A stretch of DNA of 64,000 nt from a bacterium (GCA_030680695.1 JAUXUT010000149.1:39801-103800), one strand, 5' to 3'. Shown: positions 6,355 through 48,063, counted from the first letter of the stretch. A program made the numbers and translations. The notes: generated by a model not told the origin, from the sequence alone.

Positions 6355-6379
6355 TAATCATCGTGGTATAGTCGGATGC

Positions 6380-20935: not shown

Positions 20936-21008
20936 GCGCCCTTAGCTCAGTTGGTAGAGCGATCGACTTATACTCGATTGGTCGGGGGTTCGAGTCCCTC
21001 AGGGCGCA
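20936..21008 (+). tRNA. tRNA-Ile with anticodon TAT (UAU)
   Basis: Cloverleaf: acceptor GCGCCCT/AGGGCGC, D-arm GCTC..GAGC, anticodon stem ATCGA/TCGAT with loop CTTATAC, T-arm GGGGGTTCGAGTCCCTC; no encoded CCA. Confidence 0.8.
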
Positions 21009-21023
21009 CACGTTTCAGACCCA

Positions 21024-23806: not shown

Positions 23807-23895
23807 GGAGACGTGTCAGAGTGGTCTAACGTGCCTCTTTGCTAAAGAGGTGTACCCCTTAAAAGGTACCGAGGGTTCGAATCCCTCCGTCTCCG
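23807..23895 (+). tRNA. tRNA-Ser(GCT)
   Basis: Acceptor GGAGACG/CGTCTCC, anticodon loop TTGCTAA, long variable arm, T-arm GAGGGTTCGAATCCCTC. Confidence 0.9.
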
Positions 23896-24003
23896 CTACA
23901 AAAACTTTCTTTCGGAGTGACCCGAGTACCCCGGATTTCGGCTGAAAATAACGCTCGTATAGAACGTTCGAATCCCAGATAGGTGAGGGGACTAGATACA
24001 GGG
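23894..24003 (+). repeat. Direct repeat DR-A copy 1 (attL-like, abuts tRNA-Ser)
   Basis: About 110 bp repeated at 24859-24966 (~80% identity); first 36 bp also at 47921. Confidence 0.7.
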
Positions 24004-24777: not shown

Positions 24778-24860
24778 TGGGATTCGAACGAAATTTTTAA
24801 AGGGAAGGGGTCATATTTTAAGCCACGCAATTCGCGCCGTTCGAATCGCTTTTAACCCGC
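24778..24860 (+). repeat. Direct repeat DR2 copy 1 (degenerate tRNA 3'-like segment)
   Basis: tgggattcgaacg...tcatattttaagccac...ccgttcgaatcgcttttaacccgc; second copy at 33558-33639. Confidence 0.65.
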
Positions 24861-24966
24861 TACAAAAACTTTCTTTCGGAGTGACCCGAGTACTTCGATT
24901 TTCAGCTTGTTTATTAGTTAGAAAAGAACGTTCGAATCCCAGGTGGGTAGGGAACTAGATACAGGG
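24859..24966 (+). repeat. Direct repeat DR-A copy 2
   Basis: See copy 1. Confidence 0.7.
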
Positions 24967-25226: not shown

Positions 25227-26357
25227 CTAATCTTTAATGATCCTACTTAAAAAAGGATTAATATTAGTCGCAATGTCATCTGGTATCGTACCGCATTCTC
25301 TTGCAATATTCATAATAGAATTCTGGTCTCTCGCATCACTGCTAATGACTGTAACAGGGCTACCGAGTTTTACATCCTTGATTTCCGTCACATCAATTAT
25401 TGTCGTATTCATACTTACCAAACCGATTATTTTCGCAAAGTTATTGCCAATTTTTACCACGCCTTTATTTGATAGTCGTCTATCAACTCCCGTATCGTAG
25501 CCAACAGGTATTATGGCAATCTTTTTAGCTGAATCTGAAATATATGTCCCGCTGTAACCAACTTTTGAGTTTGGTTCAATATTTTTTAATCCTGATATAA
25601 CCGTTGTCAATTCCAGCACAGGCTTCAAATGAACTAACGAGTCAACTTTTCCATTGCCAGCAAAACCATATAGACCCATTCCAGGGCGAGTCACATTCGC
25701 ACTGATCTTTTCGTTATAGCCATGGCCAGCTGAATTACTTACATGAAAGTATCGGATGTTAGTAAAATTGGTTTTGAAAATATCGACAGCAGAATTCCAT
25801 GCTTCAATTTGGATATTTGTATAAGTCGAATCTGTATTACCTGCATCAGAAAAATGAGAATAAAGTCCTTCTAGTTTAAGAGTCGGTGATTTTTTTATGA
25901 GCTCAATCGATTGAGAGATTTGAGACAGAGAGATTCCTTGCCTATTCATTCCCGTATCAATTTTTATATGCACATTAGTTTTTTTACTTATTCTGCTTTG
26001 CCATTCGTAAAGCATGTCTAGACTCGTAACAGCGAATGATATATTTTTTTGGGTCGATTTGTTTACGGTTTCAGCTTGAATGTATCCAATTACGAGAATT
26101 GGGTTCGTTATTTTGTTCTGCCTGAGAGCTATGGCCTCCTCGTACGAATCAATAATAAAAAAAGGAATTTTTTCTTTACTTAATAATTTTGCAATATCGA
26201 TTAATCCATGGCCGTAGGCGTTGCTTTTTAATACTGGAGCTATGGCAGGTGAAAGTTTTTGAAATTCTTGGAAATTGTGGATAAGAGCCCGTCGAGAAAG
26301 TGATATGAGAGTGTACGGAGTTGATGGAGACTTTAACTTAAATGTGATTTTTATCAT
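25227..26357 (-). CDS. alr: Alanine racemase
   Basis: VLKSNAYGHG PLP-Lys motif, C-terminal VSMNTTIIDVT; low-GC context. Confidence 0.85.
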   Translation of the reverse strand: MIKITFKLKSPSTPYTLISLSRRALIHNFQEFQKLSPAIAPVLKSNAYGHGLIDIAKLLSKEKIPFFIIDSYEEAIALRQNKITNPILVIGYIQAETVNKSTQKNISFAVTSLDMLYEWQSRISKKTNVHIKIDTGMNRQGISLSQISQSIELIKKSPTLKLEGLYSHFSDAGNTDSTYTNIQIEAWNSAVDIFKTNFTNIRYFHVSNSAGHGYNEKISANVTRPGMGLYGFAGNGKVDSLVHLKPVLELTTVISGLKNIEPNSKVGYSGTYISDSAKKIAIIPVGYDTGVDRRLSNKGVVKIGNNFAKIIGLVSMNTTIIDVTEIKDVKLGSPVTVISSDARDQNSIMNIARECGTIPDDIATNINPFLSRIIKD

Positions 26358-26391
26358 TGAGATATTTTGATATTTATACTATTATACCCTT

Positions 26392-27846
26392 ATGTCAAGT
26401 GAACTAAAAAACAACAAGGTTGAAAAAAAGATTACCGGTAGGAATGAGGATTATTCCCAGTGGTATCTCGATATAGTTGCATCTGCCGATCTCGCAGAAT
26501 GGGGCCCTGTAAAGGGATGTATGGTCATCAAGCCTTATGGATATGCATTATGGGAAAAGACGCAGCAAATCCTCAATGAAAAATTCAAGGAGACTGGGGT
26601 ACAGAATGCATATTTCCCGATTTTTATTCCCGAAAAATTTCTCAATAAAGAGAAAGACCATATCGAGGGTTTTGCACCAGAGGTTGCGGTTGTCACTCAT
26701 GCCGGCGGCAAGAAGCTCGACGAGCCTTTGATTGTGAGGCCGACATCAGAGACTATAATGTACGAAACTTTTTCTCGTTGGATACATTCTTATCGAGATC
26801 TGCCATTGTTGATTAATCAATGGGCAAATGTGGTTAGGTGGGAGATGCGTCCCCGCATATTTTTACGTACGGTTGAATTTCTTTGGCAAGAAGGACATAC
26901 GGTTCACGAAACTGAAAGTGAGGCAGATGGACGGGCACGCCAGATGTTGGAAATTTATAAAGATATTGCCGAAAATATTATGGCCATTCCAGTTATTACT
27001 GGAACAAAATCTGATTCGGAAAAGTTTGCTGGTGCGTTTAAGACTTATTCGCTTGAAGCCATGATGCAAGACGGCAAAGCTTTGCAGTTTGCCACCTCAC
27101 ACAATTTGGGACAAAATTTTGCAAAAGCGTTTGATGTTAAATTTCTCGATAAAAACAACACCGTCCAATATGGATGGCAAACCAGCTGGGGGCTAAGCAC
27201 GCGAACCATAGGCGGTCTTATCATGACTCATAGTGATGATAAAGGATTAGTATTGCCACCAAAAATCGCCTCAATTCAAACGGTTATTACAACCATCGTT
27301 CCTTCCGAAAAAGACAGAGAAATGATAAATCAGAAAGCCCAAGAGCTTAACATACTCTTAAAGAAAGCAGGCGTTAGAACCCATGTTGATAGTCGCGATA
27401 TACGCCCTGGTGAAAAATATTATGAATGGGAAAAAAAAGGTGTTCCGATACGTATAGAGCTTGGGCCAAGAGATGTAGCCAGCGATTCCGCCATGCTTGT
27501 TAGACGCGATACTGGGGAAAAGACAAAGACAACCATGAGTTCTCTGGTCGGGGATATCAATTCTCTGTTAAATAACATACAGCAAAATTTGTACGTGCGA
27601 GCACTAGATTATCGCAAAGCAAAGACAAAAAAAGTTGATTCTTGGGATGAGTTTGTAAAAGCGATTGAGGAAGGCAATTTTGTTTTAGCTCATTGGTCTG
27701 GTGAGAAGAACGTCGAGGCTCAGATAAAAGAAGAAACGGGAGCCACTATTCGATGCATTCCGTTTGATCAGACAAATGAGTCTGGAAAATGTATAAAATC
27801 AGGCATGCCTTCTACGGGTCGGGTGATATTTGCGAAGTCTTATTAA
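26392..27846 (+). CDS. proS: Prolyl-tRNA synthetase, archaeal/eukaryotic-like class II type
   Basis: WYLDIV..ADLAEWGPVKGCMVIKPYGYALWE, VRPTSETIMY, NQWANVVRWEMR.R.FLRT.EFLWQEGHT and a C-terminal zinc-binding-like domain. Confidence 0.9.
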   Translation: MSSELKNNKVEKKITGRNEDYSQWYLDIVASADLAEWGPVKGCMVIKPYGYALWEKTQQILNEKFKETGVQNAYFPIFIPEKFLNKEKDHIEGFAPEVAVVTHAGGKKLDEPLIVRPTSETIMYETFSRWIHSYRDLPLLINQWANVVRWEMRPRIFLRTVEFLWQEGHTVHETESEADGRARQMLEIYKDIAENIMAIPVITGTKSDSEKFAGAFKTYSLEAMMQDGKALQFATSHNLGQNFAKAFDVKFLDKNNTVQYGWQTSWGLSTRTIGGLIMTHSDDKGLVLPPKIASIQTVITTIVPSEKDREMINQKAQELNILLKKAGVRTHVDSRDIRPGEKYYEWEKKGVPIRIELGPRDVASDSAMLVRRDTGEKTKTTMSSLVGDINSLLNNIQQNLYVRALDYRKAKTKKVDSWDEFVKAIEEGNFVLAHWSGEKNVEAQIKEETGATIRCIPFDQTNESGKCIKSGMPSTGRVIFAKSY

Positions 27847-27854
27847 CCCACTTT

Positions 27855-29021
27855 ATGCCCTTTAAGGTATCTATACATGATGATCTGTCTATAAAAGATC
27901 TGATAGATATTAAAGATAAGGGAGGGGTGGTGTTAAAAACACCGCATGTCGGCAATATCTACCCTAACAATCTTGCAATTGCGTCTTTAGGTATACCAAT
28001 GCTCTTTTACGATAGGACTTTGGGGGTCAAAGATATAAGTTTTCATCCAGATAAAATTATTATTGGTGGCAGGTCAACGTTAATAGCCGACCCAAACATT
28101 TTAACCACGCATTCAATAGTCAAAAAGCTTCCAGGTTTAGCGTTTAAAGATGCAGCTGTCGGTATGAAGCTGGTGGATTTTCATATGTCCTCATTTAAAC
28201 GTGCGTTACCTCAGGCGGACTGTTTTACCTACACGGAATATATTCAAAATAATAAAAGTCAGATTCTCCAGATTTTAGAAAAAATCACAGAATTTCATCC
28301 ATATTTGTGGAGCAGAGGTGTTGATGAAAGCGGAAAGACTTTTAAATCTCAAGCAAAAAATTGGGACGACATCATTAGGTCGGGAGTCCTGGGGCTTACC
28401 AGTATGAAAAGTGGTTGGATTATACCTAATCCGGTCAGCATCCTTTTTCATGGAACCGTTGATACGCTAAAGGCAAACGCAGAAGATGTGTATCTCTTAT
28501 CGGGTCCAGACATGTATCGATACATAGAGGGATACCAACTCGAACTTAACGAGGCGTACGACTATTTAAGAAAAAGCTTAAAGTGTGAACTTCCTGAAAT
28601 GGTTCGTTGTCATATTATTCCTGTCATTTGCATGAGATTTATCGTTGAGGTTGATTATAGGAAAGTGCTAGATAATTTGGTCGATGCATACTTGAGATAT
28701 GTATCTGTCGATGATGCTATCAGAAAAATACTAAAGAGTGGCGCTCAAAACATGAGCATCGATGGGCACATAAATAAAAAGGATAAAATAAAAGAGGAAA
28801 TCTATTCTTGTATCAAAGGTCAATTTGATGCATTCAAAACTACCATGTTTTATGATGTCGAGGAGGCGGGCAGTTTTAGTCAGTATGATCTCGCCAATAG
28901 TAAGGGACTATACGTTCATCCGTGGGCGGTCAATAGTAAACTAAGCGATGTATCCAAGGCTTATAGTTTTTTATTGAGGTGCTATTTGCTCGTAAGAGAT
29001 AGGCTACAGGAAGAGATGTAG
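27855..29021 (+). CDS. Hypothetical protein (389 aa), unknown family
   Basis: ORF; start moved to the MPFKVS Met to clear proS. Confidence 0.45.
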   Translation: MPFKVSIHDDLSIKDLIDIKDKGGVVLKTPHVGNIYPNNLAIASLGIPMLFYDRTLGVKDISFHPDKIIIGGRSTLIADPNILTTHSIVKKLPGLAFKDAAVGMKLVDFHMSSFKRALPQADCFTYTEYIQNNKSQILQILEKITEFHPYLWSRGVDESGKTFKSQAKNWDDIIRSGVLGLTSMKSGWIIPNPVSILFHGTVDTLKANAEDVYLLSGPDMYRYIEGYQLELNEAYDYLRKSLKCELPEMVRCHIIPVICMRFIVEVDYRKVLDNLVDAYLRYVSVDDAIRKILKSGAQNMSIDGHINKKDKIKEEIYSCIKGQFDAFKTTMFYDVEEAGSFSQYDLANSKGLYVHPWAVNSKLSDVSKAYSFLLRCYLLVRDRLQEEM

Positions 29022-29029
29022 CTACTGAT

Positions 29030-29782
29030 ATGTCAATGGAATATGATCCAATTTTATACGATTCCGATCCAAGGCCTTTTCTTAAAGATGAGATAGAATT
29101 TTACGTGAAACTAGTCAATAAATTAAAAGCTAAAACGATACTAGAGCTCGGTGTAGGAACAGGAAGAATTTTTTCAAAGTTACTTCCGTTGGTTAAATTT
29201 GCCGAGGGGCTTGATATTTCGGAATCAATGTTAACCGCATGCAGAAATAAGTGTTCTGGTAGCATGAACTACAAATTACATAAAGCGAGTTTTACGGATT
29301 TTAATTTGCAAACTACATTTGATTTGATATACCTGCCCTTTAATACTTTTCAACACCTGCTTACGCAGGAAGAGCAAATTGAGTGCTTGATAAATATTAA
29401 AAATCACATGCACGTGGGCAGTCGATTCATCCTTGATGTAATGAATGGCGATAATTTAATTTTTGATTTTGAAAACTGGAAACAGGACTATGTGGGCACT
29501 TTGGCTGAAGGTGGATCAGTTGAGCGCGAACAAAAAACGATTAAAGTAGATTCAAAGAATTTTATCATCCATAAAATATTCAGGTATAAAGAAATTGTCG
29601 CTGGTAAGATTGATAAAATTCTTGAATTTAATGCACAGATGAAAGTAACTCCAAATAAGAAGATGGGGGAAATTTTACAGATGACTGGCTTTAAGATAGA
29701 AGACGTATGGTCTGATTACGCTTTCAGTTATACGTGCGACGCGAAGAAAATAATTTATTGCTTAAAATTAAATGGAGTTTAA
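29030..29782 (+). CDS. Class I SAM-dependent methyltransferase
   Basis: ILELGVGTGR motif I and downstream acidic-loop motifs. Confidence 0.7.
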   Translation: MSMEYDPILYDSDPRPFLKDEIEFYVKLVNKLKAKTILELGVGTGRIFSKLLPLVKFAEGLDISESMLTACRNKCSGSMNYKLHKASFTDFNLQTTFDLIYLPFNTFQHLLTQEEQIECLINIKNHMHVGSRFILDVMNGDNLIFDFENWKQDYVGTLAEGGSVEREQKTIKVDSKNFIIHKIFRYKEIVAGKIDKILEFNAQMKVTPNKKMGEILQMTGFKIEDVWSDYAFSYTCDAKKIIYCLKLNGV

Positions 29783-31070
29783 ACCAACTACTATAAAGCT
29801 AGAAAAAGGACAGGTGGTCACATCAATTTACCATAGTCCATTTGACTACAATCTTCTGTACCTTATTTGTCTCGCAAAAACTGGGTTGAAGGTAAGAATC
29901 ATCCTGGACGATATAGATAATTTGGGAGTGGATAAAAGCTTTCCTGAGGGGCCATATTCTTTCAGTGAAAAGTTTTTTATGAGTAAAACAGAAAGAACAA
30001 ATATTCGAGCCCTGTCACTGATAACCCCAAAACATCTCTTTGCAAATTTGTCGCACCCAAACCTTAAGGAGTTTGACTCGAAAATCGGTATATCCACGTT
30101 CAAAGAAAACATCAGATATAGAGATACTGTTGAGCACTGGATCAGGGATGTTACGAAAGATTTCGGCACTTTTTCTCTTATTGGGCCAGATAGATCGTAC
30201 GCTTTTACCATAGTCGATCATTTTTTTGTTCAAGCAATTAGCGATGCTAAGCAGCAAATAATTGATATCTTGAAAAAATTCCCTGATCATAAAGATAACT
30301 CGATTGAATTTATTGAATGGCTTTTTGATGAAAAAGCCATTTCAATCGGCACGCCTGTCTCTGATTATTTTTTATCAGTGATGCAAAAGATCGTTGATAA
30401 ATTTGATTTGCGCGATACCGTATCAGTAGAAAGGATGTCGGACTCGGGTATTGAAGCGAATACAAAAAAACTTATGGATTCATTTACCAACAAAGATTCC
30501 CTGTGGGAGACGTATAATTATGCGGTGGTAATTGAAGGTAAAAAAAATACGGAGGATTTTCCATTTTACGCCATATCTAAGATGGACGGGAAAAGATTGC
30601 TACCTACTGATAAATACACAAATGATCCTACCAGTTATTTTCTTGCACCGAAGGTGTTGATGCTTAACAATTTTGAAAACCTCGTCTTGCCATATCATGC
30701 AATGGGTAGCATGAATGTCCGCGCCAGACAGGCAATGTATCAAAACAAAGAAATAAATTGCAATCAAATTTTCTGTGACGACGAATGGATGAAACACATA
30801 GGTTCTTTCAATATCAAGGCACAACTCGATACTGAGGAGCAAAAGATATATGATATGGATACAGTAAATTTATCTTCACTAGGAGATTTATTTGCGAAAG
30901 GGAAAAAATCATACGGAGACAGCGTAAATACAGAAGAGGCCTATAAGGGTTGGATAATTACCTCGACTTTCAATGCTATTGATCGCGTCAAATACCCACT
31001 AATTTTTATGGCACTCCTCCAAAAAGAAGTTTTTCCTACAAAAATTCCTATTTTTTACAAATTAGCATGA
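29772..31070 (+). CDS. Hypothetical protein (432 aa), unknown family
   Basis: ORF co-oriented and tightly packed with neighbours. Confidence 0.45.
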   Translation: MEFKPTTIKLEKGQVVTSIYHSPFDYNLLYLICLAKTGLKVRIILDDIDNLGVDKSFPEGPYSFSEKFFMSKTERTNIRALSLITPKHLFANLSHPNLKEFDSKIGISTFKENIRYRDTVEHWIRDVTKDFGTFSLIGPDRSYAFTIVDHFFVQAISDAKQQIIDILKKFPDHKDNSIEFIEWLFDEKAISIGTPVSDYFLSVMQKIVDKFDLRDTVSVERMSDSGIEANTKKLMDSFTNKDSLWETYNYAVVIEGKKNTEDFPFYAISKMDGKRLLPTDKYTNDPTSYFLAPKVLMLNNFENLVLPYHAMGSMNVRARQAMYQNKEINCNQIFCDDEWMKHIGSFNIKAQLDTEEQKIYDMDTVNLSSLGDLFAKGKKSYGDSVNTEEAYKGWIITSTFNAIDRVKYPLIFMALLQKEVFPTKIPIFYKLA

Positions 31071-32374
31071 TGTTGACTCTTCTCGAAAAAACGGCCGCGG
31101 CATTAATTTTAAAATTCAAACCCACGGTCGTGTGCATCACGGGTAGCGTGGGCAAGACTTCAACTAAGGAAGCAATAGCCTCTGCATTATCGACCTCCTA
31201 CACAGTCAGAAAGACTTCCCGAAATTATAATAATGATTACGGAGTACCGATAGCCGTTATCGGAGGATTTGAATCAGAAGAGGGCTATTTGGCATTACTT
31301 ACGATACTTGGCTACGGTTTATGGCAATTATACTTTCGATCAAGATTTCCACAGATTTTAGTCATAGAAGTCGGTGCCGGAAAATTTGGAGAAATCGAGA
31401 GAATCTCCCGATGGCTAAAACCTGATATGGTCGTAGTGACCAATCTCCCAGATGTTCCATCCCATCTTGGTGTTTTCGGGTCAAAAGAGATGATTATTAA
31501 GGAAAAGAAATTTCTTGTCAGTGCAATGGATAAAGAAGGAATTTTGATAATCGATAAAAACGAAAGAAATGCGAGGTATTTTTACGAGGATTTCTCCGGT
31601 AAAATTGTATTTTTTGATGCAGATAAATTTATTGAAGGCAGTAAATATACTATTGTGTATGAAGATCGAAACGATTTTAATTATCCGCTCGGTTTTAAAT
31701 TTGAGGTTGAATTAAACAACGCTGTAGACAGAAAATCCGTGACTTTTGAAGGATTTTTGGGTATTCAAAATATGAAGGCTGTTGGAATAGCGGTTTTGGT
31801 CGCTAAACAGTTAAATTGTCGAGTAGAAGATACTTTGCAAGGTATAAAAAAATATAAACCTGAGTGCGGACGCCTCAGAATAATCCCAGAGCTTAATGGA
31901 AAAATAATAGTGCTCGACGATACGTTTAATGCTTCGCCACGCGCGATTGAAAACTCATTAAGAACGCTTCTATCTTTGGAATTAAAAAAAAGCCAACGAC
32001 GGATCGCTGTTTTGGGAGATATGCTTAATTTTGGAAAAGAGGTAGAAAAGATTCACAGACAAACTGCCACGGAAGAATTACCACAGGTCGATATTCTTAT
32101 AACGGTAGGAAACATATCAGTTGTCTGGCAAGAATTTAATAGAAATAAATACCATTTGAACAAGCATTTTAAAAATGCGACTAACGCCGCTCGGTATATA
32201 GAGAAATTTCAAAAAGAAGGCAATATTATCCTTTTTAAAGGAGGTCATTTAACACGTCTTGAGAAAGCGGTTGCCATTCTAACTGGATGCCCCTCCGAGT
32301 ATCTTGTTCGACAAGAGAAGTACTACGAGATACACGAACTCGATCTTAATCCAATATCCGCCGACAATGAATAA
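31067..32374 (+). CDS. Mur ligase family protein, MurF-like (D-Ala-D-Ala-adding-enzyme-like)
   Basis: VVCITGSVGKTSTKEAIASAL P-loop, VTNLPDVPSHLGVFGSKE, GRLRII...IVLDDTFNASP and AVLGDMLNFG motifs of MurF or the CphA C-domain. Confidence 0.7.
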   Translation: MMLTLLEKTAAALILKFKPTVVCITGSVGKTSTKEAIASALSTSYTVRKTSRNYNNDYGVPIAVIGGFESEEGYLALLTILGYGLWQLYFRSRFPQILVIEVGAGKFGEIERISRWLKPDMVVVTNLPDVPSHLGVFGSKEMIIKEKKFLVSAMDKEGILIIDKNERNARYFYEDFSGKIVFFDADKFIEGSKYTIVYEDRNDFNYPLGFKFEVELNNAVDRKSVTFEGFLGIQNMKAVGIAVLVAKQLNCRVEDTLQGIKKYKPECGRLRIIPELNGKIIVLDDTFNASPRAIENSLRTLLSLELKKSQRRIAVLGDMLNFGKEVEKIHRQTATEELPQVDILITVGNISVVWQEFNRNKYHLNKHFKNATNAARYIEKFQKEGNIILFKGGHLTRLEKAVAILTGCPSEYLVRQEKYYEIHELDLNPISADNE

Positions 32375-33356
32375 ATACAAATCAAAAATTACTCCAATTT
32401 TGTTGAAGTTGGCCGAAAAATACAACGCTGAATTTCATGTAATGGATCACGATTCTGACGCTGGTTATATCGTAGGGCAAGATCACAGCAGACATTATTT
32501 TTCCTATGGAACACTGGATTTGAATAATGATGCCGCTACTGATTTTGCGAGAAGTAAGATTCTATCCTCTGAAGTCGTTTCGGCGATTAGGATCAGGGTT
32601 CCGAAGGAAAAGATGGTTAAATTCTCAATAAATTTAAAGGCCCCTATCATTAGTGTTTTGGAGGAAATCGGAACACCCGCGATAATAAAACCAGTACATG
32701 GAGCACAGGGAAAAAATATATTTAAGATAGATTCCTTAAATAATTTTGAGCTAGTTATTAAGAATAACGATTTGAGGGATGATTTAATCATTCAAGAATA
32801 TATTGACTCTCCAAATGAGATCAGGGTCGTTCTTTTAGACGGTGAAGTAATACAGGCATATAAGAGAGATTATGCGTGTGTTATCGGCGACGCGGTAAAA
32901 ACGATAAAAGAATTGATCGAAGAAAAGAATAAATATTTTCAGAACAGACAACGTAATACTGTTATCGATACAAATGACACCCAGATAGCTGTCATTCTTC
33001 AGCAACGTGGATACGATTTGAATTACATACTACAAAAAAATGAAAGACTAAATATTTCTTATGGGCGTAATTTATCGAGAGGCGGAGAGTATGAGTTTAT
33101 TACCAAGCTCAGTCCGATAATCATAGAAGTTTCTAAAAAGATTGCTGAGGCCTCCGCTCTGAGGCTGGTGGGCATTGATTTGTTTGTTGTGGGAGATCTT
33201 GACCATGTAGAGAGCGAGAATCAAATTATCTTCATAGAATATAATGCATCACCAGATATGGAGAATAATTTCTATTATGATGCTGGCTACGAACAACAAT
33301 TATTTTTGATATATGAAAAAATCTTTAGTGGAATGTGCAAATATTCCTTATTGTAA
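32367..33356 (+). CDS. ATP-grasp ligase, cyanophycin-synthetase-N-domain / RimK-like
   Basis: IIKPVHGAQGKNIF; VIGDAVKTIKELIEEKN...LNISYGRNLSRGGEYEF...LVGIDLFVV...IFIEYNASPDME; ATGA start-stop overlap with the MurF-like gene. Confidence 0.65.
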   Translation: MNKYKSKITPILLKLAEKYNAEFHVMDHDSDAGYIVGQDHSRHYFSYGTLDLNNDAATDFARSKILSSEVVSAIRIRVPKEKMVKFSINLKAPIISVLEEIGTPAIIKPVHGAQGKNIFKIDSLNNFELVIKNNDLRDDLIIQEYIDSPNEIRVVLLDGEVIQAYKRDYACVIGDAVKTIKELIEEKNKYFQNRQRNTVIDTNDTQIAVILQQRGYDLNYILQKNERLNISYGRNLSRGGEYEFITKLSPIIIEVSKKIAEASALRLVGIDLFVVGDLDHVESENQIIFIEYNASPDMENNFYYDAGYEQQLFLIYEKIFSGMCKYSLL

Positions 33357-33557: not shown

Positions 33558-33639
33558 TGGGATTCGAACGGAATCTCGGAGAGGCGTATTCATATTTTAA
33601 GCCACAAAATCCGCTCCGTTCGAATCGCTTTAAACCCGC
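33558..33639 (+). repeat. Direct repeat DR2 copy 2 (E2/E3 junction)
   Basis: See DR2 copy 1. Confidence 0.65.
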
Positions 33640-33762
33640 CTTGACAATTTAGTATCGGCGTGACCCTATTACTCGCGAGAGTAGTGCGACCCACGAACCT
33701 GCTAGATTGTACAAAACACCAAGAGAATTCTCTTGGTGTTTTGTTGTTTATATAATTATGAA

Positions 33763-34468: not shown

Positions 34469-35311
34469 CTAAATTATCCTCCCATCAATTTCGTGGAATA
34501 AATTGCTGACCATGATAAGGCGACCGAGTGCATCGTGATGCGGAAGCTGATCTTCATCGCCGTGACTAAGATTATTCCTCCACCAGTGCATGATGCCCAT
34601 AGTGGTAAGTTTGAAGCCGAGTTGCTTATTGATCTCCTGCGGTGTTGATAGAGCGTTGAACTTTATTTTCGGGTTCTGCTCACTGAAAACAGCCGCCATC
34701 AAATCAGACCCTTGCTTATCATGAGTGCTTGTAAGGTCTTGGATCGTCTTCTCGAACCTTTCAAGGGCTTTCCGCACTGACTCGTTGATATGACCCTCGA
34801 TGAACATTTTTTTGCAGTCAGGCAGAAGCGATGGATGAAGAACAAACGCATCAAGTATTTTTTGAATCGCTATCGGAGGTGGCACTGTCCTCGGTCTTTC
34901 CTTTGGAAGATTCATTGCTACAATTTCTGATTCAAGATCAATATTGAGAGCCTTAAGTCGGGTTGAAAGTTCGAGTGCTTCAGCTTCCAATACAGGATCG
35001 CCTTTCTCGTGTCGCTTTTCTATTGCCTTCGGTAGCATCTCCCGCACGAGGATTTTTATTGTTCTTGGCTTCTGGCAATAAAGATTTCGCAAGAACTCAT
35101 AGAAAGACTCCTTCTTGTTGGCTGCTTTCGTAGGAAGATATTTCGACAAACCCCTTTCTTTTGCAATTGTCGTCAAAGAAAAGGAACTTCGGAATCCTGA
35201 AAGAGCGATGAGCTTTCCGAGCTGTTCTGCCAGTGCACGGATCGCCTGCGCTTGCGGTGCTGTGACGGTCACTCTTTTCTTTGCAATCTTTTTCTTGGTC
35301 TTCTTTTTCAT
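34469..35311 (-). CDS. Abi_C/HEPN-like protein (TIGR02391-like)
   Basis: C-terminal MHWWRNNLSHGDEDQLPHHDA containing an Rx4H HEPN-type motif of the Abi_C kind; Lys-rich N-terminus. Confidence 0.5.
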   Translation of the reverse strand: MKKKTKKKIAKKRVTVTAPQAQAIRALAEQLGKLIALSGFRSSFSLTTIAKERGLSKYLPTKAANKKESFYEFLRNLYCQKPRTIKILVREMLPKAIEKRHEKGDPVLEAEALELSTRLKALNIDLESEIVAMNLPKERPRTVPPPIAIQKILDAFVLHPSLLPDCKKMFIEGHINESVRKALERFEKTIQDLTSTHDKQGSDLMAAVFSEQNPKIKFNALSTPQEINKQLGFKLTTMGIMHWWRNNLSHGDEDQLPHHDALGRLIMVSNLFHEIDGRII

Positions 35312-35983: not shown

Positions 35984-37333
35984 TTATTCCGTCACCAAGG
36001 TCAGAGTCTTGTCCTTGTAGATGATTCTCGATCGCAGATTCGCTAACAGCTCCCGCTTCTCGCTCGTCATACCTTCCTTGAGAATGTACTTGGCATAGTT
36101 GCGGATATCGGTATCCTTGTCGGTCTTGATCTTTTCCGTTGCTCCAAGCACCGATCTCTGGAATATATTGTATCGGTTGATCTCTTCCTCAAGCTTCTGC
36201 CTCATGCCAAGCTCGTTGATGTTCACCTTGTCGAGAATTTTCAGAAGCTCCGTGATGAGTTCCTCCTCACGGATATATTTGTTCTTGCAATTTCTGTCTC
36301 TTGCTCGTGAACATGAGTAGTAGATGTAGCGGTTGGCACCACCATCTTTCAATTGCTTCCATTTCTCCTCCGCCGATATTCCACTCTGGCAATATCCGCA
36401 GGTAAATAATTTGGTGAAGGCAAACTCTTTCGTCTCTCGCACGATCTGATCACGCTTCAGTTGTGCTTTCACTTTTTCAAACAATTCCTGCGTGATGAGT
36501 GGCTGATGTTTTCCTTGATACCAGTTGCCACTCTCCCTCGGTCTCTCAAAGATTCCGTAGTAGAAGGGATTCTCAAGTATTCGATAGACTCCACTTAAGG
36601 TCAGTGGCTTGTTGCCTCTGGTGTAGAAGTTCAGCTCGAACCTCATCCAGTTGTAGACCTTCCGTCCACTCCATTGCTCGTATGCGACTTTCTCAAACAT
36701 CTTTTTGATGGTCGGCGCTCTTTGCGGATCGACAAGCACCTGTCCTTTCTTATCCATGTGCTTTTGGTTTAGATATCCAAGGGGCGCCGTTCCGACCCAT
36801 AGTCCCATCTCGCATCGCGTTCTAAGTCCTCGCTTCACGTTGATGCCTCGGTTGTCGTTTTCCAATTTCGCTTGAGAACAGAGAATCATCAGCATGAATT
36901 TGTCGTTCGGGCTGTTCGTGAATCTCTGTCCGTAGGTGCGGATGTCCTGCAAATAATTTCCATCCATGAGGTCGATGACTTTCCCGAGATCGCCTGCGTT
37001 TCTTGAAATACGGTCTGGTGCCCATGTTAGTATTCCGTTGAATTTTCCTTGCTTGATCTCATCCACGATCTCGTTGAAGACGGGGCGTTGCCCAGTCTCC
37101 TTGGCCGAGTGCGACTCTCGCTTCATGGTCACGATCTCCAACCCCTCACGCTCGGCAAGCTGAAGCATCTCATTGATTTGGCTATCTATGGAGAGGACTT
37201 GCCGTTCCTCCGATTCCGTCGACTTTCTTGCGTAAAGGCAGTATTTCACCTTTACGGGGCTTGCTACTTTGGCCGCAGTCCCTAATGGCTCTGGTCCTTG
37301 TATTCTTGTCATACAACACAAGGAATGACGCAA
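35984..37333 (-). CDS. Large serine recombinase (integrase)
   Basis: N-terminal resolvase catalytic domain YARKSTESEE...SIDSQ, recombinase domain, C-terminal Cys zinc ribbon and coiled coil. Confidence 0.85.
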   Translation of the reverse strand: MRHSLCCMTRIQGPEPLGTAAKVASPVKVKYCLYARKSTESEERQVLSIDSQINEMLQLAEREGLEIVTMKRESHSAKETGQRPVFNEIVDEIKQGKFNGILTWAPDRISRNAGDLGKVIDLMDGNYLQDIRTYGQRFTNSPNDKFMLMILCSQAKLENDNRGINVKRGLRTRCEMGLWVGTAPLGYLNQKHMDKKGQVLVDPQRAPTIKKMFEKVAYEQWSGRKVYNWMRFELNFYTRGNKPLTLSGVYRILENPFYYGIFERPRESGNWYQGKHQPLITQELFEKVKAQLKRDQIVRETKEFAFTKLFTCGYCQSGISAEEKWKQLKDGGANRYIYYSCSRARDRNCKNKYIREEELITELLKILDKVNINELGMRQKLEEEINRYNIFQRSVLGATEKIKTDKDTDIRNYAKYILKEGMTSEKRELLANLRSRIIYKDKTLTLVTE

Positions 37334-38720: not shown

Positions 38721-38948
38721 GTGATTGGCACTGCTCGTCACACAGAGGAAAAGACGTTCACTGTGCTGTATCGACCTCTATACGAAAATGATTGGTTCAA
38801 ACCTGCTACCTACCAAGCAAGGCCGCTAGAAATGTTCAACGAAAGTGTCACGAAAGATGGCAAGGCGATTCCTCGTTTTCAGCAGATAACCGATCCAGAG
38901 TTAATTGCAAAACTCGAAAAGATGCGAGATCAAATTTATGGAAAATAA
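38721..38948 (+). CDS. DUF1653-family small protein; conserved N-terminus extends upstream without an ATG
   Basis: In-frame upstream read-through gives PPTGFYYHYKHDPNGPFNDYSYEVIGTARHTEEKTFTVLYRPLY...RPLEMF, the DUF1653 pattern; the open frame begins at 38649 (ATA) after a TAA. Confidence 0.5.
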   Translation: MIGTARHTEEKTFTVLYRPLYENDWFKPATYQARPLEMFNESVTKDGKAIPRFQQITDPELIAKLEKMRDQIYGK

Positions 38949-39489
38949 TAAAGAGCAAAATATAAAAATACTAAAAGCAATTCCAGAAGACGCTCTGGGT
39001 ATTACGACTGTTCTATATAAAACCTGGCTCGATACATATCCAAACGAAGAAATTGGCATCACCAAGGAAGATGTTGAGGAAAGTTATAAAGACCACTTCA
39101 TGGAGGAGCGAGTGAAAAAGCAACAGGAGAATATTGCAAATGCTCCAGCGAATCAACTGCGACTTGTTGCAAAATCTGGTGATCAGATTGTTGGAGTCTC
39201 AACGATGATTCGTAATGAAAATAATAATCAGCTAAGGACAATTTATGTTCTCCCTGAATTTCAAGGAAGGGGCATCGGTCAAATGTTGTGGAAAGAAGCG
39301 CAAAAGTTTTGTGATTCGACAAAAGATACTATTGTTCAAGTTGCTACCTACAACAAAAATGCCATATCTTTTTACGAAAAATTAGGTTTTACAGATACTG
39401 GTAAAAGATGGTCCGATGATAAATGGAAGATGAAGAGTGGTGCAACTATTCCAGAAATGGAGCTAATCATAAAAGTAAATAATTTATAA
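38938..39489 (+). CDS. GNAT-family N-acetyltransferase
   Basis: LRTIYVLPEFQGRGIGQMLW acetyl-CoA-binding motif A. Confidence 0.7.
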   Translation: MENNKEQNIKILKAIPEDALGITTVLYKTWLDTYPNEEIGITKEDVEESYKDHFMEERVKKQQENIANAPANQLRLVAKSGDQIVGVSTMIRNENNNQLRTIYVLPEFQGRGIGQMLWKEAQKFCDSTKDTIVQVATYNKNAISFYEKLGFTDTGKRWSDDKWKMKSGATIPEMELIIKVNNL

Positions 39490-39493
39490 ACGT

Positions 39494-40846
39494 ATGCCCT
39501 TAATGACTTATGACGAATATCAAAAGAATCGACACAAAACTCCCTATCTTCTTACGATAAGAGCGGGTTCAAATTTTCTCTATTATTTTGGAGAACGCCA
39601 CTCATTTAATCCAGAAGACACCCAATGGGTTGAAGAAAAAGAATTTTGGGACAAGTTTTTGTCTGACACAGAAAATCAGAAAAGAATCGTCTTTGTTGAA
39701 GGCGGTAAGCGACCAGATGAAGTAGACGAAAAACAATCGATTCTCAAACATGGTGGAATGGGTCTCACGACATATTTCGCACATCAAGCAGGCATAGAGA
39801 CATATTCACCTGAACCAGATGAAAAATGGGAACGCTCTGAACTGGAAAAAGAATTTACGAGAGAACAAATCCAGTGCTATTACTTCTCTCGTGTCGTTCA
39901 TCAATGGGGTCGCAAGCAAAATCCAAAACCAGTATTTGAAGAATATATAACACACTTTCTAGAGGGTGATAAAAAAGAAAGTGGGTGGAGTGATTTTGAT
40001 TTCTCACTTGAATCAATGAAGAAGATTTATGTCGATATTTTTCATACTGCTTTTAATGAGAATAATACTGATTTTTTCTATAGTGTAGTTAATCCTGTCG
40101 AGCTGAAGACGATTGTTAACAAAGTATCTCGCGCCTCAAGCGAAATACGCGATAAATATATCGTTGGAAAAATAGAGGAATATATCAAACAAGAATACTC
40201 AATCTTCGCTCAATACGGATGCAGCCACGTTGTAATGCAGGAACCTCTATTAAAGGAAATTTTTTCAGAGTCTCAAAAAGATTGGTCAGACTACTACAAG
40301 GCAACCAAAGCAAAACCTCCACGCCCCTTGTTGGTGAAGGCGTTTGAATATGTTGCCGAGAAAAATAAGGCAATCGATATTGGCGGTGGTGCACTCAACG
40401 ATACGAAGTATCTTCTTAAACAAGGCTTTGATGTTACCGTGATCGATAAAAGCCCTCTCATGGAACAAGAGGCTAAGAATATTCCGAGTGACAGGCTGCA
40501 TGCTTTCACTGTCGGGTTTGAAGATTTCGATTTTTTAGAGAATGAATATGATCTCGCGTCCGCAATGTATGCTTTGCCATTTATTGATCCCGCTCATTTC
40601 GATTCCATCTTTACCAAAATAAAAAGTTCTCTCAAGACAGGTGGCATATTCTGCGGTCAGTTTTTTGGAGAGCGTGATGAGTGGTCAACGAATCCAAAAA
40701 TGACTTTTCACACAAAAGAGCAAGCGGAAAATCTACTCAGCGATTTAGAGATCATTTCTTTCAAGGAAGAAGAAAAGGAAGATAAAACAGCCAAGGGCGA
40801 TATGAAGCATTGGCATATCTTTCACATAATCGCTCGGAAAAAATAA
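39494..40846 (+). CDS. Fusion protein: unknown N-domain plus C-terminal class I SAM methyltransferase (TehB-like)
   Basis: AIDIGGGALNDTKYLLKQGFDVTVIDKSP motif I; about 270-aa N-domain of unknown function. Confidence 0.55.
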   Translation: MPLMTYDEYQKNRHKTPYLLTIRAGSNFLYYFGERHSFNPEDTQWVEEKEFWDKFLSDTENQKRIVFVEGGKRPDEVDEKQSILKHGGMGLTTYFAHQAGIETYSPEPDEKWERSELEKEFTREQIQCYYFSRVVHQWGRKQNPKPVFEEYITHFLEGDKKESGWSDFDFSLESMKKIYVDIFHTAFNENNTDFFYSVVNPVELKTIVNKVSRASSEIRDKYIVGKIEEYIKQEYSIFAQYGCSHVVMQEPLLKEIFSESQKDWSDYYKATKAKPPRPLLVKAFEYVAEKNKAIDIGGGALNDTKYLLKQGFDVTVIDKSPLMEQEAKNIPSDRLHAFTVGFEDFDFLENEYDLASAMYALPFIDPAHFDSIFTKIKSSLKTGGIFCGQFFGERDEWSTNPKMTFHTKEQAENLLSDLEIISFKEEEKEDKTAKGDMKHWHIFHIIARKK

Positions 40847-40848
40847 TA

Positions 40849-41835
40849 TGGAAGCCATTTTACAAAAAATAACAGATCAATACGGACTTCGACTACAGCA
40901 TCTACAAAAAGTAGACCAAGGTTTTTTGACTGATAATCATATCCATCACGGATGGAGCGACCAAGTATTTTTTAAAGAAGTACAGGTTTAAAAATGTAGA
41001 GAAAATTAAGGAAATCCATTCCGTTAAGAAATATTTCTCAGACGGAGGGATTTCTGTCATCATGCCGATTAACACGAAAGACGGGAATAGCTTCTTCGAA
41101 CTAGAGGAAAGCTTTTATGCTCTATTTCCTTTTATCGATGATCGGCAAATGCAAGGCGAACAAATTACAAACAAAGCGGTTATCTCCTTGGCTGAAACCT
41201 TGGCAAGAATGCACCTCTTGGGTCGGGATGCCAAAATACCAGTAAGTGATTCTTTCAAGATGTGGGACAGGCAAAAGAGACTATCTGCCATTGAACAGAT
41301 TTTGGAGAAGATAAGCCAAATAAAAAATAAATCCGATTTTGATATTCGAGCCGAAAAGAACATTCTTTTCAAGAAAAATATTATTGAGTCGAAAAAAGAG
41401 GAGTATGAAAACTTGAAATTCAATAATGATCACTTGATACATGGTGATTATATGATCCAAAATGTGTTCTTTGATGGAAACGATAATGTTTCCTACGTTT
41501 TTGATTTTGAGAAAACGCAATACGCACCGCGATTTTTCGAACTATTCCGAGCAATGATTTATAGTTCATTTTTCGATAAGGAAATTACTGAAGCAATGGT
41601 GGCGCGCACAAAGCTCTTTTTGGATTCGTATCTCGAAATATATCCCGCAACTAAAGAAGATCTCGTAGAGAATTTTGAGATGTATTATTTGAGATCAGCC
41701 CATTCCGTATGGGTAGAAGAAGAGCACTATTTGAGGAATAATGACAGAGTTGATGAGCTCCTGAAAAGTGACATCGTACGAGTTAATTATCTGACGAATA
41801 ATTTAGAAAGCCTGAAGCTATTTTTGTTTAAATAA
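40849..41835 (+). pseudogene. APH/choline-kinase-family phosphotransferase, frameshifted paralog of gene 6380-7363
   Basis: N-terminal fragment MEAILQKITDQYGL...FFKEVQV stops at about 40990; the frame resumes (...SDGGISVIMPINTKDGNSFFELEESFYALFPFID) and aligns to the chromosomal YFLKQ...LFPFIEG paralog; C-part has HGDYMIQNVFFDGN and VFDFEKTQY. Confidence 0.5.
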
Positions 41836-42843: not shown

Positions 42844-44940
42844 TCATATCCCAATATACGGAAACTGCGGTAAGTCATCCTCCCCAAAATCCTCCTGTTG
42901 CGTTGGCCTCTGAATAATTCTCTTGTCTTTGGCAATCGTCAGAGCAAGTGCGTCAGGAATGGATGAATCAATACCTTCTTCCATCAATGTCTCTCGGTCA
43001 GTCATCTTTCTCTTGCTGTTGGTATCGGTGTAAACCATGTAAAGCAAATCATCGAATAAATATCGCCCCACAAGCTTTCCGATTCGGAGCCATCCTGCCA
43101 ATTTTGAGTATGCTCTAGCCCAGTTGTCGGCAAACAAATTGTTCTCGAATTGAGGTTGCTCGTTCATCGTAATTCCATATCGCTGGCGGTTTCCATATTT
43201 GTTTACGTTGAAATGCCCGACCGCAAGCTGTCTCAACAAGTTACATAATTCCTGCCCTCGATCTACATTATCAATAAATATGTTCTCATCCGATATCGGC
43301 ACGTCATGTATCTTTGCGAGTTCGATAACTTTTAAAGCCATTGTTGTCGCATCTTGAATCGGCTCATGATACAAAACCTCGGCTGCATTCTCGCCTCTAA
43401 GCACGATAGTTGAGTGAGTCCTGTTCTTGTCAGCCAATACCACTCCCAATCTTTTGTCTCCAAAACACGAAACCCTTTCCTGATAGCTATCGTTCAATAG
43501 TCTTTCGTCAAAAAGTGCATGATAGCCTTTAGGTATATTCGATTCCTGATCCACGACACTTGATACGAGAATACAGAACGCATCCGAAAGGTCGTCGTGC
43601 TTTTCCGTACCGAATCCCACGAGTTGTTCAATCAGCTTCTCTGCACCATATCGGGGGAAGAGTACCGTGCCAGACTGAATATGGTGTGAGACGAGAGAAA
43701 GTCTTGCACGCTTGTCTGACCCTTGCGTTCTATACTCCTTCGCAGGAAAGTTCTCGGATTTCAGATGGTCGATGATTGATTTTTGGTATCCTACGTTCTC
43801 GATCCAAACATGGGCATTTCCGAGAGTTTTTGAAAGTGACTTAATCTTCTCGATCGTCTTCGGAAAATCCATTCTCTCGTTCACAAGATTAGGTAGAATA
43901 TAAATCTTCAACGCTTTCTTCCTGCCGTATATCTTTCCCGAAACCATCGCTGTGTAGTCCGCATTGTCCTTCTCGCTGATTGCAGGATCGATACCAGTCG
44001 CTGTAAATCTGCACGCATCACTTGGCAGAGAATCGTAATAGCGAATCCATTCAGGTCTGATCACCTGATCGTCATCGGCAATGATCTGAAGCATGTACTC
44101 TCGTTGCCATGCTTGGAGGCTTGGTACGGATTTTCGTAATGTCTCAACTTCGGCGTCCGTTCTATACTTGTCTTTCCATAATGGCTGATTGTTCTCGTCG
44201 AGGAAGGGGTACGCCTTTGCAATGCCGTCCATGCGACCTTCTAGAATAGCCTTCTTCAATCGCATGATAATCGAGTCATTGTGGAGCTTCGTACCAATAA
44301 CAATAAGTCTCGTGTCCTTGTCTCCCAATGGAATAATATCTCCCATGAGCCAGTTGAACATTTTGTCTCGGCTTTCCTGCGTTTTCACGATATCCAAATC
44401 TTCCAAGTCATCTGCGATGATAAGATCGGGTCTGTGAGCACCGTGCTTGATTCCACGAATCGAGTTGTCGATAGAGGCTACCGTTACTCTTGCTCCGTAC
44501 TTAGGAAGTACGATCGACACTGCACGCCATTCATCATTAGGTTCCTCGAATGGTCCGAGGTCTAATCTTAGAAGTCTGTTATGTTCAAGTTCCAGTTTAA
44601 TGTTCGCCAAGTACTGCCTTGCTTGGCTTTCGGTCTTTGCAATAATCAAAACAAATTTCCTTTGCTGCATTCCAAGAATAGACCAGATGGCGTAGGAAGT
44701 ACCCATGATAGTGGTCTTGCCCGATCCTCGAAAGGCTTCGATGACCATAGTCTTGTGAGTTGCCTCTGTCAGCTCAAATAATTCCTTATGAAATTGCGCT
44801 GTTTTGTATTTAACATAATGCGAGAAGTAGATATGGAAGAACCAGTAATGACATGCTCTGGTCGTCGCACGTCTTACTCGCTGATTCTTCACGATCTCAT
44901 CAATCTTCTCAGCCGATACTTCGGAGTCGTGGTTATGCAT
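42844..44940 (-). CDS. Terminase large subunit-like ATPase/nuclease
   Basis: Walker A FRGSGKTT, Walker B-like LIIADDLEDLD, C-terminal RNaseH-like TGIDPA...DYTAM; follows a terS-like gene. Confidence 0.6.
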   Translation of the reverse strand: MHNHDSEVSAEKIDEIVKNQRVRRATTRACHYWFFHIYFSHYVKYKTAQFHKELFELTEATHKTMVIEAFRGSGKTTIMGTSYAIWSILGMQQRKFVLIIAKTESQARQYLANIKLELEHNRLLRLDLGPFEEPNDEWRAVSIVLPKYGARVTVASIDNSIRGIKHGAHRPDLIIADDLEDLDIVKTQESRDKMFNWLMGDIIPLGDKDTRLIVIGTKLHNDSIIMRLKKAILEGRMDGIAKAYPFLDENNQPLWKDKYRTDAEVETLRKSVPSLQAWQREYMLQIIADDDQVIRPEWIRYYDSLPSDACRFTATGIDPAISEKDNADYTAMVSGKIYGRKKALKIYILPNLVNERMDFPKTIEKIKSLSKTLGNAHVWIENVGYQKSIIDHLKSENFPAKEYRTQGSDKRARLSLVSHHIQSGTVLFPRYGAEKLIEQLVGFGTEKHDDLSDAFCILVSSVVDQESNIPKGYHALFDERLLNDSYQERVSCFGDKRLGVVLADKNRTHSTIVLRGENAAEVLYHEPIQDATTMALKVIELAKIHDVPISDENIFIDNVDRGQELCNLLRQLAVGHFNVNKYGNRQRYGITMNEQPQFENNLFADNWARAYSKLAGWLRIGKLVGRYLFDDLLYMVYTDTNSKRKMTDRETLMEEGIDSSIPDALALTIAKDKRIIQRPTQQEDFGEDDLPQFPYIGI

Positions 44941-47920: not shown

Positions 47921-47956
47921 CGCTACAAAAACTTTCTTTCGGAGTGTCCCAGGTAC
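47921..47956 (+). repeat. Direct repeat DR-A copy 3 (right boundary of the island)
   Basis: cgctacaaaaactttctttcggagtgtcccaggtac; GC content rises immediately after. Confidence 0.65.
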
Positions 47957-48063
47957 GTCGACTCTCACCTGAAAACAACATCCCAATCCAGCGTCACAAT
48001 CTCAGATGGCTTCGGAACCAGATGTGGACAGGTTTTACCACTACCACACGTTATACTTACCTT

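Follow-up and report, generated by a model that had tools for sequence, protein, structure and literature searches.

A MurF-paralogue ligase and an ATP-grasp ligase in a conserved six-gene operon on a putatively mobile island

Which product is assembled by a MurF-like ligase and an ATP-grasp ligase that are encoded next to each other, and does such a pair serve cell-wall synthesis, the formation of a cyanophycin-type polymer, or a pathway of its own? The question is raised by a 64,000-nucleotide (nt) stretch of bacterial DNA (GCA_030680695.1 JAUXUT010000149.1:39801-103800), here called the window, in which the two genes occupy positions 31067-33356. An earlier note on this DNA had read them as a split, order-reversed cyanophycin synthetase, acting as a two-component amino-acid ligase. 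The analysis presented here suggests that the pair works like Ddl and MurF, yet belongs neither to these housekeeping families nor to a cyanophycin-type polymerase. The two genes lie at the 3′ end of an operon of six genes, strictly conserved and referred to below as the cassette, so that the two-component description had to be given up; the statement that the substrates are undefined is upheld. Coordinates are those of the window unless a homologous locus (numbered L) is named, and P-numbers denote proteins.

The ligase pair

The two genes are the following:
31067-32374, + strand: MurF-paralogue ligase of 435 aa with the central and C-terminal Mur domains only (Pfam, NCBIfam and PDB profiles, alignment)
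32367-33356, + strand: ATP-grasp ligase of the CphA-G/GshAB/NAGGN/RimK group (Pfam, NCBIfam, PDB, homologue alignment)

Both open reading frames (ORFs) lie on the same strand where the earlier note had placed them, as separate genes with the ligase first, and their Pfam and NCBIfam domain matches are far beyond chance. The pair is conserved in at least eight independent loci. Their junction had been described as a 4-nt ATGA overlap of the ligase stop with the ATP-grasp start, which proved wrong because the TGA in question is out of frame. The ligase gene ends with ...GAC AAT GAA TAA, the stop codon being at 32372-32374, and the ATP-grasp gene starts at the ATG at 32367 (MNKYKSK, an N-terminus common to all 20 aligned homologues), so that the 3′ end of the former and the 5′ end of the latter overlap by 8 nt (ATGAATAA). 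A genuine ATGA start/stop overlap is found one junction upstream, at 31067-31070, where the stop of the gene for an orphan protein, Y, meets the ligase start.

The ligase carries the Pfam domains Mur_ligase_M (2e-19) and Mur_ligase_C (9e-11). It scores 207.5 bits (3e-61) against the NCBIfam murF model TIGR01143, which does not reach the curated cut-off of 288.6, and about 40 bits against the MurD and MurE models. Against the cyanophycin synthetase model TIGR02068 it scores only 21.6 bits (5e-5), which speaks against a split cyanophycin synthetase. The motifs GSVGKTSTKE (aa 26-35, nt 31142-31171), DDTFNASP (aa 284-291, nt 31916-31939) and LGDM (aa 316-319, nt 32012-32023) are all present, but the claim of a full MurF motif set holds for no more than the central and C-terminal parts of the protein. 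It lacks the N-terminal domain, as shown by the P-loop at residue 26, compared with about 89-120 in solved MurF structures, and by the alignments to the best PDB matches, all of them MurF structures, which begin at MurF residues 69-121 (residue 6 of the ligase pairs with residue 69 of 3zl8, residue 15 with residue 98 of 4cvk).

In Mur ligases, the N-terminal domain binds the uridine/UDP-MurNAc-peptide part of the substrate (PMC10214165, PMC6085368) and the C-terminal domain the incoming amino acid(s) (PMC10214165), and the roles of the conserved Asn and His have been described (PMC6085368). The cassette clade and the MurF clade of candidate phyla radiation (CPR) bacteria share the conserved residues K30, the acceptor-carboxylate N55, E101, the Mg-binding H133, D284-D285-N288, G317-D318-M319, R397 and E399. 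The cassette clade differs in two loops of its C-terminal domain, in which canonical and CPR MurFs are otherwise conserved: it has GDMLN(F/L)G for GDMxELG and KGGH for K(G/A)S(R/Q). Since it is this domain that binds the incoming amino acid, the incoming substrate of the ligase has probably changed relative to MurF.

About 30 proteins, 52-79% identical, make up the ligase clade, beyond which identity drops to at most 36%. The next relatives are thousands of CPR proteins of about 430 aa, annotated as MurF by some sources, and the nearest among them are short MurFs from the division and cell wall (dcw) cluster, 33-36% identical and of the same architecture. In these CPR MurFs the P-loop is at about residue 33 and the whole N-terminal UDP-binding domain is absent; like the cassette ligase, they have an insertion after the P-loop helix and a C-terminal ..RQE..W tail. 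Two of them sit in mraZ-rsmH-ftsL-ftsI-murF clusters (L007, 10001-11299; L008, 10001-11296), and a dcw MurF (P0106) scores 266.6 bits against TIGR01143 and is thus also under the cut-off. From the short architecture and the shared insertion and tail, the cassette ligase is, at the sequence level, a divergent paralogue of the housekeeping MurF lineage of CPR bacteria, unrelated to the M domain of CphA. Within the CPR family itself, the insertion is hydrophobic and about 25 aa long, and the tail reads LLxRQEKEW (P0068, P0098, P0106, P0141, P0144). The literature searched, of limited coverage, contained no description of CPR MurFs that lack the N-terminal domain, of MurF paralogues or of the present gene combination.

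For the ATP-grasp protein, the earlier note's description as CphA-like stands at the profile level, its nearest match being the G (ATP-grasp) domain of cyanophycin synthetase: 110.5 bits (6e-32) against TIGR02068, over model positions 185-448 only and with a cut-off of 850. It scores 79.5 bits against NAGGN synthetase, 66 against GshAB and 71.4 against RimK (TIGR00768), the last over the N-terminal half only and below the cut-off of 143.4. The Pfam RimK domain is passed with 55.8 bits (cut-off 21; RimK-type ATP-grasp, 6e-15), so that by its profile scores the protein belongs to the RimK superfamily but not to the RimK family. The best PDB matches, at about 1e-14, are the CphA2-type 8fxh, the GshAB 3ln6 and the CphA1 7lg5. 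Models of Ddl reach just 17-28 bits (E 1e-6 to 5e-3), far under their cut-offs: the best is NF002378 with 27.7 bits (cut-off 243), followed by 16.9 for PF07478 (cut-off 24) and 16.8 for TIGR01205 (cut-off 245.65), and the Dala_Dala_lig_N domain was not found in the Pfam profile search. Taken with the sub-threshold murF score of the ligase, this excludes the ordinary D-Ala-D-Ala branch, which the earlier note had named as the finding that would refute its reading.

Of the ATP-grasp signature reported earlier, NLSRGG (nt 33069-33086) and GID (nt 33171-33179) are in place, but the GDG element, which is the family consensus, reads GDA here (GDAVKTIKELIEEKN, nt 32886-32930). Invariant in the family are K108, Q143-E144, R153, N235-L236-S237, G239-G240, D271, E291 and N293, and R234 of the RNLSxGG motif is kept in at least 90% of the sequences. 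With 36 relatives among 5.8 billion proteins, and the next ones only 27-29% identical, the protein forms a small clade of its own, which we assign to the CphA-G/GshAB/NAGGN/RimK group and not to Ddl. Judged by these residues, both enzymes of the pair retain the catalytic residues of their families. The nearest outgroup protein, P0033 (29% identical), is encoded at L015 (5583-10461) on a 1.03-Mb gut-metagenome contig, in an operon of a MurJ/MatE-like flippase gene, two ATP-grasp genes and a 439-aa gene, which as a whole may be another cell-envelope peptide system.

The operon and its other members

Upstream of the pair, the window contains the following features:
25227-26357, - strand: canonical alanine racemase gene alr (Pfam Ala_racemase_N and _C; GC content at third codon positions, GC3, 0.31)
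26357-26385, + strand: promoter-like site TTGAGA-17-TATTAT before proS (consensus scan, 10 of 12 matches; a pattern match only)
26392-27846, + strand: full-length prolyl-tRNA synthetase (ProRS) gene proS of the T. thermophilus/archaeal-eukaryotic type, first gene of the operon
27855-29021, + strand: X, orphan protein of 388 aa with TPHVGN and LLSGPDMY motifs
29030-29782, + strand: class I S-adenosylmethionine-dependent methyltransferase (MTase; Pfam Methyltransf_25 and _31)
29772-31070, + strand: Y, orphan protein of 432 aa whose stop overlaps the ligase start (ATGA); predicted Rossmann fold like that of class I aminoacyl-tRNA synthetases (aaRS), resembling BshC and class I lysyl-tRNA synthetase (LysRS)
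Downstream of it:
33711-33744, + strand: predicted strong intrinsic-terminator-like hairpin 3′ of the operon, with a 15-bp stem

Look-ups of gene neighbourhoods and scans of collections gave eight independent loci (L001, L003, L005, L009-L012 and L014). Wherever a locus is long enough, it shows one collinear gene set, namely proS (484-494 aa), X (about 390 aa), MTase (250 aa), Y (about 430 aa), ligase and ATP-grasp, in flanks that differ. The junctions from proS to the ATP-grasp gene measure +8, +8, -11, -4 and -8 nt in the window, and the genes are translationally coupled.

Only 10 of 1.84 billion representatives are relatives of protein Y, and searches against Pfam, NCBIfam, PDB sequences and PADLOC gave no real match. 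An AlphaFold2 model built from a 9-sequence alignment has a predicted local distance difference test score (pLDDT) of 85 and a predicted template modelling score of 0.87. It points to a class I aaRS/BshC-like fold, as far as one model from a shallow alignment can tell. A Foldseek search of the model against the PDB returned nothing significant, and the likeness in fold is therefore remote and rests on one method. Compared with BshC, MshC and class I LysRS, Y has no detectable sequence similarity, and it is not a member of the BshC family by sequence; in contrast to class I aaRS, the positions of the HIGH and KMSKS motifs are degenerate (YHSPFD, ERMSD) and not conserved in the remote relatives.

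These remote relatives of Y lie either in clusters of other bacteria that look like natural-product pathways or next to a canonical Ddl gene with a MurF-like partner. In L024, a 478-aa ORF is followed by an MTase gene and the Y-like gene; L026 (703-11398) encodes an aminotransferase, an HMGL-like protein, two ORFs, an MTase, a major facilitator superfamily (MFS) transporter, a FemAB-like protein and the Y-like protein. L019 (1-9389) has genes for HMGL-like, haem-oxygenase-like, aminotransferase IV, RraA-like, MR_MLE and MFS proteins, then an IS110-type transposase gene and the Y-like gene, and in L018 an MFS gene precedes the Y-like gene. The cassette MTase is homologous to the MTases beside the Y relatives in L024 (29% identity, E 4e-24) and L026. 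L021 (39-4472) combines a Y-like gene (36% identical) with a reverse-strand gene for a weakly ornithine-racemase-like pyridoxal-phosphate enzyme and a canonical Ddl gene (284.2 bits; cut-off 245.65), which a short MurF-like gene overlaps by 8 nt. Two themes recur: MTase is paired with Y, and a racemase forms a module with a dipeptide ligase and a MurF-like ligase. The next ORF in L021 starts, by eye only, like a PhyH-type oxygenase.

The ProRS matches PDB 1h4q with 567 bits over residues 11-484, and proS heads the cassette in all seven loci that extend that far. X is 45-65% identical across six loci; profile searches of Pfam, NCBIfam, PDB and PADLOC gave only noise or no match, and by hhalign X is not detectably related to Y or to the ORFs of the remote Y clusters. 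Its KTPHVGN may correspond to the HxGN variant of the HIGH motif of class I LysRS. In L012, X is split into two ORFs (5471-5950 and 6135-6644) with residues of about 154-219 missing, through pseudogene formation or an assembly error; the cassette there is otherwise intact and 84-88% identical to that of L001. The best NCBIfam matches of the MTase are weak and are N-methyltransferases, the daptide MTase model (58 bits) and glycine/sarcosine N-methyltransferase. PADLOC detected no defence system, and the single hit among the cassette proteins was a generic match of the MTase to mad2.

Divergently from proS, with a gap of 34 nt, lies alr, which passes TIGR00492 with 275.7 bits (cut-off 168) and scores 249 bits against the VanT-G catalytic model, under its cut-off of 460. 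The gene is found in this position in four loci (the window, L003, L009 and L011), the copies being 56-67% identical. No riboswitch or T-box was found near the operon with Rfam, and the tight spacing of 34 nt between alr and proS also rules out a T-box or attenuator before proS. A precursor of a ribosomally synthesized and post-translationally modified peptide was likewise considered and rejected, since junctions of 8 nt or overlaps, together with the same 34-nt spacing, leave no room for a conserved small ORF.

Rarity and island context

Among 185,579 species genomes, the cassette occurs at one locus, in a metagenome-assembled genome of the Saccharibacteria. A metagenome collection yielded five cassette loci, and a scan of IMG/VR revealed no phage-borne copy. 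The GC content of the cassette is 0.379, compared with about 0.50-0.51 for the host (recG 0.53, ftsH 0.52), and all seven genes, including alr, deviate in GC3 (0.31-0.39 against 0.50-0.57 in host genes). In seven of seven other loci, cassette GC is also below that of the flanks. The window has, in addition, the hallmarks of an integrated island:
23807-23896, + strand: tRNA-Ser(GCU) (ARAGORN, Rfam), whose 3′ part with the sequence downstream forms the first att-like repeat copy
23847-23980, no strand: first att-like repeat copy (tRNA-Ser 3′ end and downstream sequence; repeat families D1/D2)
24778-24944, no strand: left att-like direct repeat bounding the module from alr to the ATP-grasp gene (repeat families D1, D2, D12)
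33558-33673, no strand: right copy of this inner direct repeat (repeat families, alignment)
35984-37333, - strand: large serine recombinase, likely the island integrase (Pfam Resolvase, Recombinase, Zn_ribbon_recom)
47900-48007, no strand: outer att-like repeat closing a low-GC mosaic island (D1, alignment; GC rises at about 48 kb)

The inner repeat pair brackets the alr-to-ATP-grasp module (24811-24894 matches 33590-33673 with 80% identity over 84 nt, and 24778-24794 matches 33558-33574 with 94%), and the outer pair brackets the low-GC mosaic of 24.9-47.9 kb. Since all four repeats derive from tRNA-Ser, one can presume tandem or nested integrations, which would have left a remnant of about 1 kb, the 8.7-kb alr-to-ATP-grasp module and a recombinase/methylase element of about 14 kb. 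The recombinase is 81% identical to one directly downstream of the L003 cassette, where a tRNA-Ser is also adjacent. By composition and flanking repeats, the cassette is foreign to the host genome and horizontally mobile. Its genes do not share a single history: L001 and L012 are 84-88% identical in MTase, Y, ligase and ATP-grasp but only 57% in ProRS, whereas L012 and L014 have ProRS 89% identical and the other genes 46-58%. These incongruent identity matrices indicate that the proS allele has been exchanged between cassette lineages by recombination at the operon head. That proS is exchanged and yet always found at the head favours a functional link over hitch-hiking.

Other genes of the window were noted. 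Between the cassette and the recombinase lies the gene of a Hypoth_Ymh (PF09509) protein (34469-35311, - strand; PADLOC models Aga_HEPN and PD-Lambda-3_B), possibly a defence gene of the HEPN type. A second low-GC block (38905-41835, about 0.38) encodes a GNAT acetyltransferase, a 450-aa protein with a C-terminal methyltransferase domain and an APH-type phosphotransferase, which may be resistance or modification cargo. A terminase-small-subunit-like helix-turn-helix protein and two N6/N4 DNA methylases at 44933-47350 (- strand), also inside the island, suggest a phage-derived segment. In the rest of the window, there is a protein with an ice-binding-like domain (PF11999, E 7e-59) at 9560-10708 (- strand) in the host part, and a tRNA-Ile with the anticodon UAU at 20936-21009, which is unusual for bacteria, most of which read AUA by a lysidine-modified CAU tRNA.

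Possible functions and comparison with known systems

The explanation that we favour, with belief and doubt about evenly balanced, is that the cassette is a mobile operon which assembles a short peptide or pseudopeptide, probably including Pro and D-Ala, independently of nonribosomal peptide synthetases. The ATP-grasp enzyme would form an acyl-phosphate intermediate and either make a dipeptide, in a Ddl-like role, or add one C-terminal residue to a peptide, as a parallel to its relatives GshB, NAGGN synthetase and CphA-G. The MurF paralogue would phosphorylate a carboxylate of a pathway intermediate and couple an amino acid or dipeptide to it, with an acceptor that is not the canonical one. 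Further residues may be added by Y, and possibly X, via adenylate or aminoacyl-tRNA chemistry, and the MTase may methylate an amine. ProRS could supply Pro-AMP or Pro-tRNA, or it could protect the host from the product as an immunity copy. In favour of a peptide pathway, the remote relatives of Y keep the MTase-Y pairing and lie beside genes for MFS exporters and for HMGL-like, aminotransferase and FemAB-like proteins.

A more specific version, which we regard as tentative and on balance doubtful, is a self-contained mobile small-molecule pathway in ultra-small bacteria of the CPR/Saccharibacteria type, in which four or five amide-forming folds (the class II ProRS, the class I aaRS-like Y and perhaps X, the MurF paralogue and the ATP-grasp) make an N-methylated Pro/D-Ala peptide. 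Such a peptide might, for instance, mimic a peptidoglycan stem with D-Ala-D-Ala at its end, or it might be a prolyl-adenylate-like inhibitor, with ProRS as the immunity copy.

Several points weigh against a peptide pathway. The product of the cassette and the substrates and activities of all six proteins are predictions, and the accessory status is judged from GC content, repeats and rarity. X has no assignable fold (pLDDT 34 in a single-sequence AlphaFold2 model), and the cassette has no exporter gene, which would be uncommon in a pathway for a secreted natural product. The ligase has genuine peptidoglycan enzymes as its closest relatives; alr, of canonical type, adjoins the cassette and the variant module of L021 includes a canonical Ddl, so that a role in the cell wall fits these observations equally.

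The main rival, which we judge rather unlikely, is accordingly a cassette for the remodelling of peptidoglycan precursors, analogous to van clusters, which are known mobile target-replacement cassettes. Alr would provide D-Ala, the ATP-grasp would replace Ddl and make D-Ala-D-Ala or D-Ala-X, the MurF paralogue would add this dipeptide to a UDP-MurNAc (or lipid-linked) tripeptide, and ProRS, X, MTase and Y would decorate the stem or the cross-bridge. Such a role would agree with the short dcw architecture of the ligase and its retained acceptor-carboxylate Asn and Mg-binding His, with alr at four loci and with L021, where Y-like and racemase-like genes are coupled to a canonical Ddl gene overlapping a short MurF-like gene; moreover, an intracellular precursor needs no exporter. 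However, the ATP-grasp is neither Ddl- nor Van-like, no gene resembling vanX, vanY or vanH was found among the cassette proteins and their neighbours, and ProRS, MTase, X and Y are strictly linked to the pair but have no counterpart in known precursor synthesis. The changes in two loops conserved in MurF, and the natural-product-like clusters with MFS exporters around the remote Y relatives, also fit poorly with remodelling.

Other roles, such as the modification of a protein or a cofactor, appear less probable still. We consider very improbable the split, order-reversed cyanophycin-synthetase-like polymerase of the earlier note, in which the ATP-grasp would extend a poly-amino-acid backbone and the Mur-like enzyme add side-chain residues to give a polymer for storage or for a capsule. 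The two types of catalytic domain known from CphA are indeed there, cyanophycin synthetase is the best single NCBIfam match of the ATP-grasp (110 bits over the G-domain region) and the best PDB matches include CphA2-type and CphA1 structures. Nevertheless, this score is far below 850 and similar to those of GshAB, NAGGN synthetase and RimK, and the ligase descends from CPR MurF, with a murF score far above its CphA score. In addition, the CphA N domain is absent, no cyanophycinase-like gene occurs in the window or the eight loci, and four other conserved genes would be left unexplained. Ordinary housekeeping, with the lineage's sole MurF, a non-orthologous Ddl and the sole ProRS and Alr in a syntenic block, has equally little to recommend it: the genomes of CPR bacteria are small and core genes in them are often present as one divergent copy, both ProRS and Alr are full-length enzymes of canonical type, and a dcw MurF of CPR bacteria is also under the murF cut-off, but the foreign GC and GC3 of all seven genes, the att-like repeats, recombinase and tRNA-Ser, the single occurrence among the species representatives, the sharp fall in identity between the ligase clade and the thousands of dcw MurFs and the incongruent proS alleles all speak against it.

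CPR bacteria, or Patescibacteria, are regarded as having very little biosynthetic capacity. A mobile operon with an aaRS, a racemase and peptide ligases would mean that they exchange dedicated small-molecule or cell-wall-modifying chemistry. In the more specific version of the peptide pathway, Y would be the first member of a new class I aaRS-like ligase family, with further members in natural-product-like clusters of other bacteria. The analysis yields a MurF paralogue that has been taken into use away from the dcw pathway, an ATP-grasp from the CphA/GshB group that holds a Ddl-like position, and two orphan families, of which Y has a testable fold assignment. At about 7-8 kb, the cassette is small enough to be synthesized and expressed.

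Compared with CphA1 and CphA2, the cassette likewise pairs an ATP-grasp of the same subgroup (lid G-D-G/A-x-x-T-I-x-E-L-I) with a Mur-type ligase, but it does so in two genes and in reverse order, lacks the N domain and has a Mur partner derived from MurF. To the C-terminal domain of GshAB, NAGGN synthetase and RimK, the ATP-grasp is linked by profile scores of 66-80 bits and the same invariant residues, although it is under every family cut-off and stands in its own small clade. Genes for aaRS occur in biosynthetic clusters as donors of aminoacyl-tRNA or as self-resistance copies, a theme treated in general terms in PMC2922099. The cassette resembles these in having a complete aaRS strictly linked to peptide-ligase genes on an accessory element, and differs in that no aminoacyl-tRNA user of the FemAB or cyclodipeptide-synthase type is recognized by sequence in it. 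With the Ddl and MurF (and Alr) branch, it has in common ATP-grasp and MurF-type ligases side by side near an alanine racemase. From this branch and from van clusters, it is set apart by an ATP-grasp outside the Ddl/Van family, by the lack of VanH, VanX and VanY and by four additional obligatory genes. Unlike the short MurF of CPR bacteria, to which it is 33-36% identical, the cassette ligase is encoded outside dcw, in an operon running from proS to the ATP-grasp gene on a low-GC mobile island, and has the loops N(F/L)G and GGH in place of ELG and GS(R/Q); its score is under the MurF family cut-off. With MurF in general it shares the P-loop, the acceptor-carboxylate Asn, the Mg-binding His, DDxxNxSP and LGDM, and with the CPR MurFs also the missing N-terminal domain, the insertion after the P-loop and the C-terminal LVRQE..W tail.

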